Origin: Escherichia coli O127:H6 str. E2348/69
GTDB taxonomy: Bacteria > Pseudomonadota > Gammaproteobacteria > Enterobacterales > Enterobacteriaceae
Length of the DNA: 64,000 nt
Assembly (NCBI RefSeq): GCF_000026545.1
Contig: NC_011601.1
Direction: 5' to 3' (one strand)
In this document: positions 33,056 to 34,933 of the stretch, piece by piece
Numbering within the stretch: the first letter of the stretch is position 1
Layout: each line of letters begins with the position of its first letter
Position numbers and translations under genes: made by a program
Notes under the pieces: model-generated
What the model was told of the DNA's origin: nothing
What the model saw: only the letters and a program-made list of their open reading frames with translations
Databases searched by the model: none

Positions 33056-34933
33056 ATGTCTGCATCTTCGGTTAAGCCGTTAAATGTTCAATTACCCGCA
33101 ATAACCCTGATCCTTTTTGCGCTCTGTGTTGGGATATTTTGTTACCTCGCACAATGGATGAGTTACGAAGAAGTCGATCAATCCGCACTCATCCATCTCG
33201 GCGCTAACGTTGCCTCTCTCACGTTGTCGGGTGAACCCTGGCGCTTATTGAGCAGTGTCTTTCTGCACAGTAGTTTTTCCCATTTGCTGATGAATATGTT
33301 TGCACTCCTGGCGGTGGGGACAGTAGCGGAACGGATACTGGGGAAATGGCGACTCCTGATTATCTGGTTATTCTCCGGCATCTTTGGTGGGCTGATCAGC
33401 GCCTGTTATGCGTTACGCGAAAGTGAGCAGATAGTCATCAGCGTTGGGGCATCCGGGGCAATTATGGGAATAGCGGGCGCTGCGATAGCAACACAGCTTG
33501 CTTCAGGTGCGGGCACACACCATAAAAACCAGCGGCGAGTATTTCCTCTGTTGGGTATGGTGGCGCTGACACTGTTGTATGGTACCCGGCAAACAGGAAT
33601 AGATAACGCTTGCCACATTGGCGGCCTGATTGCGGGGGGCGCGTTGGGTTGGCTGAGTGCGCGTTTAGTTGGGCAAAATCGGCTCGTTACGGAAGGCGGG
33701 ATTATTGTTGCGGTCACTCTTCTTCTGACCGGGACTATCTGGCTTGTGCAGCAGCAGATTGATGAATCAGTTTTACAGGTCAGGCAAAGCCTGCGTGAAG
33801 CGTTTTATCCGCAGGAGATTGAACAAGAGCGACGACAAAAAAAGCAGCAGTTAGTGGAGGAGCGCAACGCCCTCAGGGAAACATTATCCGCTCCGGTAAG
33901 TCGTGAGCAGGCCAGTGGTGATTTACTCGCTGAGATTGCCGATATCCATGATATGGCGATCAGTCGGGATGCTAATACGTTGTATGCCGCAATTGAAAAC
34001 ACGAACAGCATTGTTGTTTTCGACCTCGGACAAAAGAAAATCCTGCATACCTTTACAGCGCCCATAGCGAAAGAAAAGTCAGTCAAACATTGTGGTGGCT
34101 GTAAAGATCAGGGCGTCAGATCGATGGCATTAAGCCTGGATGAAAAGTTGATTTATGCGACTTCATTTGAAGCGAATGCGTTATCGGTCATTAACGTGGC
34201 GACGGGGGAGATTATTCAGTCGATTACCACCGGCGCACATCCTGACAGCCTTATCCTCTCGTGTGATGGCACAAAAGCCTGGGTGATGAATCGCACCAGC
34301 AATAGTGTGTCAGCGATTGATCTGGTGGCTTATCAGCATGTGGCGGATATCCCGCTGGAGAAATACGACGGGACGGGGATGAGCGGTAAACCAGGCGCCT
34401 GGGTTATGGCACTTTCCCCGGATGAAAAAACATTACTGGTTCCGGGAGCAGGCAGAGGTAACATCGTGCGGTTCAATACCATCACGCATCAGAAAGAAGA
34501 CTTTCCCGCAGGTAATGCGCGTGGTGTCGTTTCTGCGATGGGATTCCGACCAAAAAATGGTGAGGTTATTTTTGCCGATAGCCAGGGGATTTCACGTATA
34601 AGAGCAGAGGATCAACAAGCCAGCATTATGACGCAATGGTGTCGCAGGAGCGTTTATTCCGTTGAGGGTATTAGCCCGGACGGTCAGTATTTAGCGTTGG
34701 TGTCATATGGCCTGCAAGGTTATGTCATCCTGCTCAATATTAATGCCGGGCAGATTATTGGCGTTTATCCTGCCAGCTACGTTAATAATCTTCGTTTTTC
34801 AGCGGATGGTAGAAAGATATTTGTTATGGCGAAGAACAGGTTAATCCAAATGGACAGGACGCGCTCGATTGATCCGCAGGCAATTATTCGGCATCCCCAA
34901 TATGGCGATGTGGCTTGTATCCCTGAAACGTAA
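33056..34933 (+). CDS. rhomboid-family intramembrane serine protease fused to C-terminal YVTN-type beta-propeller domain
   Basis: 625-aa ORF; rhomboid motifs (FLHSSFSHLLMNMF, GASGAIMG, CHIGGLIAGG), seven predicted TM helices, coiled-coil-like linker, ~40-residue repeats in C-terminal ~330 aa. Confidence 0.75.
   Translation: MSASSVKPLNVQLPAITLILFALCVGIFCYLAQWMSYEEVDQSALIHLGANVASLTLSGEPWRLLSSVFLHSSFSHLLMNMFALLAVGTVAERILGKWRLLIIWLFSGIFGGLISACYALRESEQIVISVGASGAIMGIAGAAIATQLASGAGTHHKNQRRVFPLLGMVALTLLYGTRQTGIDNACHIGGLIAGGALGWLSARLVGQNRLVTEGGIIVAVTLLLTGTIWLVQQQIDESVLQVRQSLREAFYPQEIEQERRQKKQQLVEERNALRETLSAPVSREQASGDLLAEIADIHDMAISRDANTLYAAIENTNSIVVFDLGQKKILHTFTAPIAKEKSVKHCGGCKDQGVRSMALSLDEKLIYATSFEANALSVINVATGEIIQSITTGAHPDSLILSCDGTKAWVMNRTSNSVSAIDLVAYQHVADIPLEKYDGTGMSGKPGAWVMALSPDEKTLLVPGAGRGNIVRFNTITHQKEDFPAGNARGVVSAMGFRPKNGEVIFADSQGISRIRAEDQQASIMTQWCRRSVYSVEGISPDGQYLALVSYGLQGYVILLNINAGQIIGVYPASYVNNLRFSADGRKIFVMAKNRLIQMDRTRSIDPQAIIRHPQYGDVACIPET

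Follow-up and report, generated by a model that had tools for sequence, protein, structure and literature searches.

A rhomboid gene between gltI and lnt

The 64,000-nt window from E. coli O127:H6 strain E2348/69 (NC_011601.1) contains, at 33056–34933 on the plus strand, an uninterrupted 1878-nt coding sequence with an ATG start, encoding 625 amino acids plus a stop. The RefSeq entry for this ORF is WP_001276764.1, "rhomboid family intramembrane serine protease". It lies between gltI (31694–32602) and lnt (35066–36607), both on the minus strand, in the order rihA-gltLKJI / rhom7 / lnt-corC-ybeY-ybeZ, using the gene name of its Shigella sonnei counterpart. The original prediction, made from the sequence of this window, had described a 625-residue ORF at exactly this position. 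The gene is chromosomal and monocistronic, and its site in the gltI–lnt interval is fixed. Features of the locus and of the encoded protein are listed in Table 1.

The segment upstream of rhom7 contains a Shine–Dalgarno-like AAGGAAG about 10 nt 5′ of the start codon. A scan for the sigma-70 consensus upstream of rhom7 gave no match on the plus strand and is uninformative as to the promoter; the absence of such a match fits the weak expression at native level described for S. sonnei Rhom7. The hairpin located 8 nt past the rhom7 stop codon reads as a putative terminator of the convergent ybeZ-ybeY-corC-lnt transcript, because its T-run lies on the minus strand. Read on the plus strand, it has no T tail.

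Table 1. Coordinates of features at the rhom7 locus of E2348/69 (window positions).
Feature	Position	Strand	Basis
Segment upstream of rhom7, present only in gene-carrying strains	32848..33055	+	blastn breakpoints
rhom7 CDS	33056..34933	+	RefSeq annotation; 92% identity to same-locus S. sonnei protein
Six-TM rhomboid core, aa 1–205	33056..33670	+	Pfam; GlpG 2NR9 alignment; AF2 helices; invariant motifs
Catalytic Ser133 codon (predicted)	33452..33454	+	GASG motif; S133A in S. sonnei Rhom7 (PMC7232013)
Catalytic His187 codon (predicted)	33614..33616	+	CHIGG motif; H187A in S. sonnei Rhom7 (PMC7232013)
Seventh TM helix, aa 209–233	33680..33754	+	Hydropathy; AF2 helix 209–233; K/R distribution
Charged helical linker, aa 237–273, two helices	33764..33874	+	AF2 helices 237–250 and 253–273
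Seven-bladed YVTN-type beta-propeller, aa 289–612	33920..34891	+	TIGR02276; 1L0Q; AF2; Foldseek
GC-rich hairpin (putative terminator)	34941..34961	-	9 pairs, 6 GC; tail TTTTTTCTTA on minus strand

The N-terminal rhomboid core

The N-terminal part of the protein had been proposed to be a rhomboid core with an intact catalytic dyad and TM2 motif, and this was borne out. The Pfam Rhomboid profile (PF01694) matched residues 59–201 with E = 1.2e-28, covering model positions 2–140 of 143. In the AlphaFold2 (AF2) model, the six core helices span residues 15–34, 74–95, 97–122, 132–149, 152–178 and 182–203, and the L1 loop (residues 35–73) bears W62-R63. The GASG motif at 131–134, with Ser133, is at the start of TM4, and the CHIGG motif at 186–190, with His187, is in TM6 (AC-H-IGGLIAGG), which also has the GxxxG motif, G190-x3-G194. 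The sequence HSSFSHLLMN at 71–80 includes the TM2 motif H76xxxN80. Twelve of these motif residues (W62, R63, H76, N80, G131, A132, S133, G134, H187, G189, G190 and G194) were invariant in 16 homologs with identities down to 24%. The structure of H. influenzae GlpG (PDB 2NR9) aligned over residues 13–204, including all six helices. The ORF thus has the profile match, the Ser–His dyad, the WR, HxxxN and GxxxG motifs and the six-helix membrane core by which the rhomboid family is recognized. The E2348/69 protein is predicted to be an intramembrane protease, supported by the 92%-identical protein from S. sonnei.

Assignment to two more narrowly defined groups was rejected. The ORF scored below the equivalog cutoffs for GlpG (42.1 bits against 250 for TIGR04239 and 36.4 against 335 for NF008155) and for rhombosortase (45.3 bits against 84 for TIGR03902). 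GlpG from E. coli and H. influenzae shares the catalytic fold, the motifs and the alignment across six helices, but stops at six TMs, carries a cytoplasmic domain at its N-terminus and lacks a periplasmic one.

Seventh helix, linker and topology

An extra seventh helix followed by a charged linker had also been anticipated, and both are present: the AF2 model has seven long helices, the last ending at residue 233, and then two more at 237–273. A cytoplasmic loop with R203 and R209 precedes TM7. In the linker segment dN was low, with omega between 0.03 and 0.27 where it could be computed.

The original prediction had the propeller in the periplasm through a 6+1 TM topology. Such an arrangement is consistent with the GlpG alignment, with the distribution of K/R residues, of which there are 9 in the four predicted cytoplasmic segments versus 3 in the three short periplasmic loops, and with the conserved Cys pairs, which in the homolog alignment were found only in the C-terminal domain. 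Since the N-terminus is presumably cytoplasmic, as in GlpG, TM7 would place the propeller in the periplasm. The C346/C349 pair was lost together in two Klebsiella-type sequences (P0038 and P0039). The topology of S. sonnei Rhom7 was derived by Liu et al. from a Phobius prediction (PMC7232013).

A seven-bladed propeller at the C-terminus

The C-terminal ≈330 residues had been described as a YVTN-type propeller, and profile, structure-based and model-based searches all agreed with this. The NCBIfam YVTN repeat model TIGR02276 scored 49.6 bits, compared to a cutoff of 27.85, in two stretches, with the best repeat at 362–398. The founding YVTN structure, PDB 1L0Q, matched with E = 5.7e-21 in four or five repeat registers. 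The sequence repeat is strong only in blades 2 and 3, and the remaining blades are divergent. The AF2 model (mean pLDDT 79.0; mostly 77–94 in the blades) has ≈28 beta-strands between residues 289 and 600, equal to seven four-stranded blades, at approximately 293–335, 352–392, 393–434, 447–489, 490–529, 530–573 and 574–612; the strand at 289–292 probably closes blade 7. Foldseek matched the model to G-beta, 1L0Q and 5C2V at E ≈ 1e-15, with a probability of 1.00 for seven-bladed propellers including 1L0Q and 5C2V_B. In the model, Cys346 and Cys349 are in a low-confidence loop; the ORF also contains Cys529 and Cys621.

The 1L0Q protein, from Methanosarcina mazei, belongs to the same YVTN repeat family and has the seven-bladed fold, but is secreted as a protein of the archaeal surface layer, carries a PKD domain and lacks any membrane protease. 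A search with the C-terminal domain only, against 1.84 billion representatives, mostly returned giant multi-repeat YVTN proteins via repeat matches and gave no functional lead for the domain.

Identity with Rhom7 of Shigella sonnei

The combination of rhomboid and propeller is not new: it is that of the published Rhom7, which the original prediction had not recognized. Judged by its sequence and position, the ORF is the E2348/69 ortholog of S. sonnei Rhom7 (SSON_0610, UniProt Q3Z4D6) and was thus already known. It is identical to the S. sonnei protein (P0005) at 577 of 624 residues (92%), and at least 91% identical to the 625-residue Rhom7 sequence, with Ser133 and His187, machine-read from Fig EV1 of PMC7232013. 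The S. sonnei locus has the same order, rihA-gltLKJI / gene / lnt-corC-ybeY. The two proteins have in common their length (624/625 residues), Ser133/His187, the gltI–lnt locus and seven TMs followed by a C-terminal domain, and differ only allelically, in ≈8% of residues. Cys403 was confined to the E2348/69 allele among the sequences aligned.

Liu et al. (EMBO J 2020; PMC7232013) showed that S. sonnei Rhom7 is an active protease, and that the S133A and H187A mutations each abolish its cleavage of a TatA-TMD reporter. Overexpressed Rhom7 cleaved the TM anchors of HybA and FdnH only in the absence of their complex partners, and this cleavage licensed the further degradation of these orphan subunits; orphan HybA was cleaved by GlpG as well (PMC7232013). 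[quoted passage not shown] In S. sonnei, no cleavage by Rhom7 could be detected when it was expressed from the chromosome, and mutating both rhomboids produced no phenotype in growth, respiration, oxidative stress or T3SS (PMC7232013). Because native cleavage was undetectable and the double mutant had no phenotype, the physiological substrate set of Rhom7 is uncertain.

Liu et al. named the tail of the protein just "C-terminal domain", and the words "propeller" and "YVTN" are absent from their paper (PMC7232013) and from the Rhom7-citing papers that we checked. Literature searches combining rhomboid with YVTN or with beta-propeller returned nothing relevant, although most subscription journals are outside their coverage, so this absence is not proof. 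No published discussion of the Rhom7 tail being a seven-bladed propeller seems to exist.

Distribution and evolution

The gene is strain-variable, as had been predicted. Among 5426 complete E. coli genomes, rhom7 was present in 3237 (≈60%), including EPEC E2348/69, Nissle-derived strains, HS and non-O157 STEC, and absent from 2189 (≈40%). It was full-length in 3231 of the carriers. K-12 and O157:H7 are without the gene and have a short, "empty" gltI–lnt spacer instead. Because the gene is missing from these two, while present in ≈60% of E. coli, it was overlooked in classical E. coli work.

The variability had been linked to a copy of IS5 at this position in K-12. That element exists, as IS5D/insH3 between gltI and lnt of MG1655, but it is not what replaces the gene. 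The gene-less spacer of O157:H7 is roughly 400 nt long, and the K-12 spacer minus IS5D aligns with it. Homology to the empty spacer stopped at ≈32847 for O157:H7 and ≈32901 for K-12, and blastn at word size 7 found no rhom7 remnants in the empty spacer between these points and 35072. Displacement of rhom7 by IS5 in K-12 was therefore rejected: IS5D is inserted into a spacer that is itself gene-less, as in O157:H7. Going by these alignments, the strain variability of rhom7 is independent of IS5. At least one strain (H70) retains only a 143-nt 3′ remnant of the gene.

Five further alleles that we sampled were all intact 625-aa CDSs. The whole-gene dN/dS was 0.15–0.35, with similar values for core and propeller, and omega for the C-terminal domain was 0.17–0.55. 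Purifying selection acts on both domains. Within E. coli, the amino-acid divergence of the product was 7%. Also found in public collections are forms that are frameshifted or truncated at the N-terminus (P0029, with 640 member sequences, and P0025, with 161), and others in which blades are deleted in frame (P0022 and P0023).

Homologs with about 49–56% identity are found at the gltI–lnt junction of K. aerogenes and other enterics. For K. aerogenes, the rhom7 product was 48.7% identical, versus 81–92% for the products of neighbouring genes, a much faster divergence. Besides K. aerogenes, Pseudoduganella has this architecture, as do metagenomic contigs at 24–56% identity. No conserved partner or substrate gene was found next to it: the enteric homologs have only the gltI/lnt frame in common, and the distant homologs examined, in Pseudoduganella and metagenomic contigs, have unrelated neighbours and no common gene.

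Comparison with other seven-TM rhomboids

The closest rhomboid cores outside the family are of the GluP/YqgP type with C-terminal TPRs, at 31–44% identity over the core. Like Rhom7, GluP/YqgP of B. subtilis and ActH of S. aureus have a six-TM core followed by a seventh helix, through which an interaction repeat domain at the C-terminus is exported. Their repeat domain, however, consists of three TPRs instead of a seven-bladed YVTN propeller, their type has an N-terminal cytosolic domain where the E2348/69 protein has only ≈14 residues before TM1 (which starts at ≈15), and Rhom7, unlike these proteins, has a Gram-negative host. Membership in the GluP/YqgP/ActH type was rejected, as there were no TPR matches and the tail is a propeller; the resemblance is architectural only. 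AarA of Providencia stuartii is likewise a 7-TM bacterial rhomboid, 30% identical to Rhom7, and the TMD of its substrate, TatA, is cleaved by Rhom7 (PMC7232013). In contrast to Rhom7, AarA has 281 residues, stops shortly after TM7 and has no propeller.

Proposed role of the propeller

We consider it very likely that the ORF encodes the Rhom7 ortholog, a predicted active rhomboid protease with 6+1 TMs, whose probably periplasmic propeller most likely serves as a docking platform. The propeller is probably outside the catalytic machinery. Its ligands could be tail-anchored substrates, held by their folded periplasmic domains, or else some partner in the periplasm, for example a downstream protease; docking would tune which proteins get to the active site. 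This role is hypothetical, because deletion of the C-terminal domain left reporter cleavage unchanged. There is precedent for extracytoplasmic repeat domains of 7-TM rhomboids as partner-binding modules: the extracellular TPRs of ActH bind and activate the amidase LytH (PMC9245657), and YqgP, whose C-terminal domain consists of TPRs, has a role in membrane-protein quality control (PMC7231995).

A stronger version, which we regard as possible but somewhat doubtful, is that the propeller is the true specificity determinant of Rhom7, reading the folded, Tat-exported periplasmic domains of orphan tail-anchored subunits of the HybA/FdnH type or recruiting a periplasmic protease for the degradation that follows. 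The divergence from K. aerogenes (49% identity, against 81–92% for the neighbours) would then be a sign that Rhom7 co-evolves with clients specific to each lineage. The published deletion of the C-terminal domain leaves this version standing, since it was assayed with an artificial reporter and under overexpression only.

The propeller might instead work independently of proteolysis, activating or scaffolding a periplasmic enzyme, while the core would mainly hold it in the membrane or would have a role apart. In ActH, the known function resides in the extracellular repeats alone and does not require the rhomboid domain (PMC9245657), and the nearest cores to Rhom7 are of the type whose family contains ActH-like proteins; moreover, the C-terminal domain is under purifying selection despite being dispensable for reporter cleavage. 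We nevertheless think this unlikely, given that the whole family shows strict conservation of the catalytic motifs, so that proteolysis has been retained, that no partner gene was linked in the contexts examined, and that experiments give no hint of a partner either. Still less probable is that rhom7, although intact in E2348/69, is an accessory gene drifting to loss, dispensable, poorly expressed and with little effect on fitness. The many gene-less genomes, the H70 remnant, the broken and blade-deleted forms, the 7% divergence and the published lack of a phenotype or native-level cleavage in S. sonnei (PMC7232013) all point that way, and the dN/dS, which is for rhom7 alone without a flanking-gene reference, looks relaxed. 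Against this, all but six of the carriers have the full-length gene, the locus is kept in several enterobacterial genera in spite of ≈50% divergence, dN/dS is well under 1 in both domains, and the motifs do not vary. A fusion of separate rhomboid and propeller genes, whether artefactual or recent, for which we found no supporting evidence, has practically no likelihood and was ruled out: the same 1878-nt CDS is present in thousands of independently finished genomes, and the architecture recurs in other genera.

To our knowledge, few bacterial rhomboids have a known function, and Rhom7 is among the handful with identified substrates. The present result refines this known system and is not the discovery of a new one. 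With the limits of TM7 (209–233), linker (237–273) and propeller (289–612) now defined, recognition of the propeller gives a concrete hypothesis for the Rhom7 tail, namely that it docks a ligand or partner. If the propeller does determine specificity, Rhom7 would be a "receptor-coupled" rhomboid.

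Identity and domain organization of the gltI–lnt ORF

The window is chromosomal DNA of the EPEC strain E2348/69; its region 32700-35100 was 100% identical to NZ_CP059840.2, and the ORF between gltI and lnt carries the RefSeq name "rhomboid family intramembrane serine protease" (WP_001276764.1). A Shigella sonnei rhomboid, Rhom7 (SSON_0610; UniProt Q3Z4D6), was previously described with seven predicted TMDs and catalytic Ser133 and His187 (Liu et al., EMBO J 2020; PMC7232013). The 625-aa Rhom7 sequence shown in Fig EV1 of that paper aligned end to end with the window protein, and an S. 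sonnei protein from the public collection was identical to it at 577/624 positions, its gene lying between rihA-gltLKJI and lnt-corC-ybeY-ybeZ as in the window. Because of this alignment, identity and common locus, the ORF is assigned as the E2348/69 ortholog of Rhom7.

The original prediction of a rhomboid core with a catalytic Ser in GASG, a catalytic His in CHIGG and the TM2 HxxxN motif was borne out, as all three were present and Pfam Rhomboid matched residues 59-201 (E=1.2e-28). H. influenzae GlpG (2NR9) aligned with residues 13-204, comprising all six core helices. The window protein agreed with the rhomboid family and the Rhom7 orthologous group at every sequence-level point of comparison, and scored below the equivalog cutoffs for both GlpG and rhombosortase. 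The tail qualified as YVTN repeats, as had been proposed: the NCBIfam YVTN repeat model TIGR02276 scored 49.6 bits (cutoff 27.85) and the founding structure of the YVTN family, PDB 1L0Q, matched with E=5.7e-21.

Coordinates of rhom7 and of its sequence and model features
Feature	Position	Strand	Remark
rhom7 ORF	33056-34933	+	ATG start, 625 aa
GASG	residues 131-134		includes Ser133
CHIGG	residues 186-190		includes His187
HxxxN	H76xxxN80		inside HSSFSHLLMN
W62-R63	residues 62-63		loop L1
Long helices 1-3 (model)	residues 15-34, 74-95, 97-122
Long helix 4 (model)	residues 132-149		Ser133 at start
Long helix 5 (model)	residues 152-178
Long helix 6 (model)	residues 182-203		bears His187
Long helix 7 (model)	residues 209-233
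Charged segment helices (AlphaFold2 model)	residues 237-250 and 253-273
Strong hairpin	34941-34961	T-run on -	8 nt past rhom7 stop

An AlphaFold2 model generated from the 16-sequence family alignment (mean pLDDT 79.0, pTM 0.58) reproduced the rest of the proposed architecture: an extra seventh TM helix, a charged linker formed by two helices, and a propeller of about 330 aa. Residues 289-600 contained ≈28 strands forming seven four-stranded blades. Foldseek against the PDB returned seven-bladed propellers with probability 1.00 and E ~1e-15, including G-beta subunits, 1L0Q and hydrazine synthase beta (5C2V_B). Model confidence was low at the N-terminus, the TM4/5 loop and the insertions 341-348 (the HCGGC loop) and 438-444. 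By sequence, the canonical YVTN repeats are confined to blades 2-3 (~352-434), the remaining blades being divergent, and these two blades account for the thousands of hits that the representative search gave to giant repeat proteins.

Topology of the C-terminal domain

The published Rhom7 topology rested on a Phobius prediction (PMC7232013). Homology to GlpG suggests that the N-terminus is cytoplasmic; nine Lys/Arg residues fall in the predicted cytoplasmic segments vs three in the three short periplasmic loops. Together with the seventh helix, this arrangement argues for a predicted periplasmic location of the C-terminal domain (CTD). The cysteines in the family alignment agree with such a location: conserved non-membrane cysteines are confined to the CTD. 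The C346/C349 pair has CxxC spacing in enterics and CxxxxC spacing in distant homologs; two Klebsiella-type sequences (P0038/P0039) lack both residues. C529 is conserved almost without exception, and most sequences have C621. This pattern suggests putative disulfides, compatible with an oxidizing compartment. Codon 403 (34262-34264) encodes a Cys (LSCDG) unique to the E2348/69 allele among the aligned sequences, an additional unpaired cysteine in the predicted periplasmic domain; the corresponding residue is Arg (LSRDG) in the E. coli, Shigella and other enteric homologs.

Distribution and evolution of rhom7

A rhom7 CDS was present in 3237 of 5426 complete E. coli genomes, the match covering at least 80% of the query in 3231 of them, with 93% to 100% identity to the E2348/69 allele. 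All five further alleles retrieved were intact 625-aa CDSs, and one strain retained just the last 143 nt. O157:H7 and K-12 lack rhom7 and have a gltI-lnt spacer of ~400 nt, whose homology with E2348/69 ends on the left at ~32847-32901 and restarts on the right at 35072. The gene had been called strain-variable, with an IS5 copy here in K-12, and both statements were confirmed, as MG1655 IS5D sits inside the gene-less spacer; the connection between IS5 and the absence was not, IS5D being incidental to it. The right breakpoint falls within the last codons at the 3' end of lnt (35066-35072). The two alleles whose downstream spacer is of the E2348 type (E2348/69 and ECE313) encode a 513-aa Lnt; the protein has 512 aa in gene-less O157:H7 and K-12 and in four other rhom7-carrying E. 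coli alleles.

Klebsiella aerogenes and two other enterobacterial contigs have homologs of 49-56% identity at this junction, which argues that rhom7 is old at the site and that its absence is best explained by loss. rhom7 is a fast-evolving gene: Rhom7 and its K. aerogenes ortholog (locus L010, on a K. aerogenes-type contig) share 48.7% protein identity, vs 81-92% for seven flanking proteins (GltL, GltK, GltJ, GltI, Lnt, CorC and YbeY). Alleles within E. coli differ by up to ~7% in nucleotides and amino acids; relaxed constraint and client co-evolution are candidate causes of the fast divergence. Distant full-length homologs (24-32% identity) occur in Pseudoduganella and metagenomes among unrelated neighbours. 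Beyond the small Rhom7 family, the nearest rhomboid cores are those of GluP/YqgP-type proteins, which bear C-terminal TPRs. The GluP/YqgP/ActH type resembles the window protein in architecture only, as its TPRs and N-terminal domain are absent here.

Among the public protein clusters of the gene, P0023 (531 aa) and P0022 (554 aa) have in-frame deletions that fuse two LSPDEK repeat motifs, with loss of one or two blades. P0029 (640 member sequences) has a frameshift in the region of the catalytic His, giving a 440-aa call without the protease core. N- and C-terminally truncated calls also occur among P0022, P0023, P0025, P0029 and P0035.

Other features of the window

Because its T-run lies on the - strand, the hairpin beyond rhom7 resembles a terminator for the convergent ybeZ-ybeY-corC-lnt operon; on the rhom7 strand no T tail follows it. 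Immediately past lnt, at ~35025-35055, there is a second palindrome (GGCCTGCAAAATTG...CAATTTTGCAGGCC). A ~9-kb accessory cluster (51456-60435) separates nagE from glnS; in K-12 MG1655 these two genes are neighbours with a spacer of ~200 nt. Its annotated products are an SLC13 permease, NanQ/YiaL-family, sialidase-family, TerC-family and DHDPS-family proteins, an iron alcohol dehydrogenase, D-threonate kinase DtnK, D-threonate-4-phosphate dehydrogenase and a DeoR regulator. The metT-leuW-gln operon (42156-42749) has six tRNA genes (Met, Leu, Gln-UUG x2, Met, Gln-CUG) vs seven in MG1655, where tRNA-Gln(CUG) is encoded twice (glnV and glnX); E2348/69 therefore lacks one Gln(CUG) copy. Between lipB and lipA, ybeF (LysR-family regulator, 13843-14163) is an annotated pseudogene with a frameshift, an internal stop and a missing C-terminus. 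Rfam detected, as expected for this region, the sRNA SroC at the gltI 3' end (31536-31698, 172.6 bits) and a cspA-type thermoregulator 5' UTR overlapping cspE (10487-10935, 138.6 bits).

Function of the rhomboid and propeller domains

Rhom7 cuts a TatA-TMD reporter, the S133A and H187A mutants do not, and deletion of the CTD alone or of TM7 plus the CTD has no effect on this cleavage, the substrate of the ΔCTD construct being artificial only (PMC7232013). HybA and FdnH were cut by plasmid-expressed Rhom7 only without their partners, and cleavage was not detectable with Rhom7 expressed from the chromosome (PMC7232013). By orthology with Rhom7 (PMC7232013), the catalytic part of the mechanism can be regarded as established: the Ser133-His187 dyad within the six-helix core would cut helix-destabilized single-pass TMDs of orphan complex subunits, and this cleavage would license their degradation. 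The propeller is most likely a periplasmic docking or regulatory platform. Precedents for such a platform are the CTD of YqgP, which consists of TPRs (PMC7231995), and the TPRs of ActH, which bind and activate LytH without need of the rhomboid domain (PMC9245657). An ActH-like propeller function, independent of proteolysis, is a less likely rival reading.

Alternatively, rhom7 might be mostly dispensable and heading for loss. This is favored by the 40% of genomes without the gene, by the truncated, frameshifted and blade-deleted variants among public data, and by the lack of phenotype of a glpG rhom7 double mutant in growth, respiration, oxidative stress and T3SS (PMC7232013). Pairwise dN/dS among six E. 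coli alleles was 0.15-0.35 for the whole gene, 0.13-0.35 for the rhomboid and 0.17-0.55 for the propeller; purifying selection acts on both domains alike. An artefactual fusion of rhomboid and propeller genes was refuted.

The protein was already known and the original prediction is correct. The word "propeller" is absent from PMC7232013 and from the further Rhom7-citing papers checked, and searches of the accessible open literature for a rhomboid with YVTN or beta-propeller yielded nothing relevant, so that the CTD fold appears not to have been discussed there previously; its propeller nature is trivially visible from profile databases. What is new here is limited to naming the CTD as a propeller, its domain boundaries and the population picture. 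If the propeller proved to determine the native substrates, this would be an advance of moderate interest for the rhomboid field.
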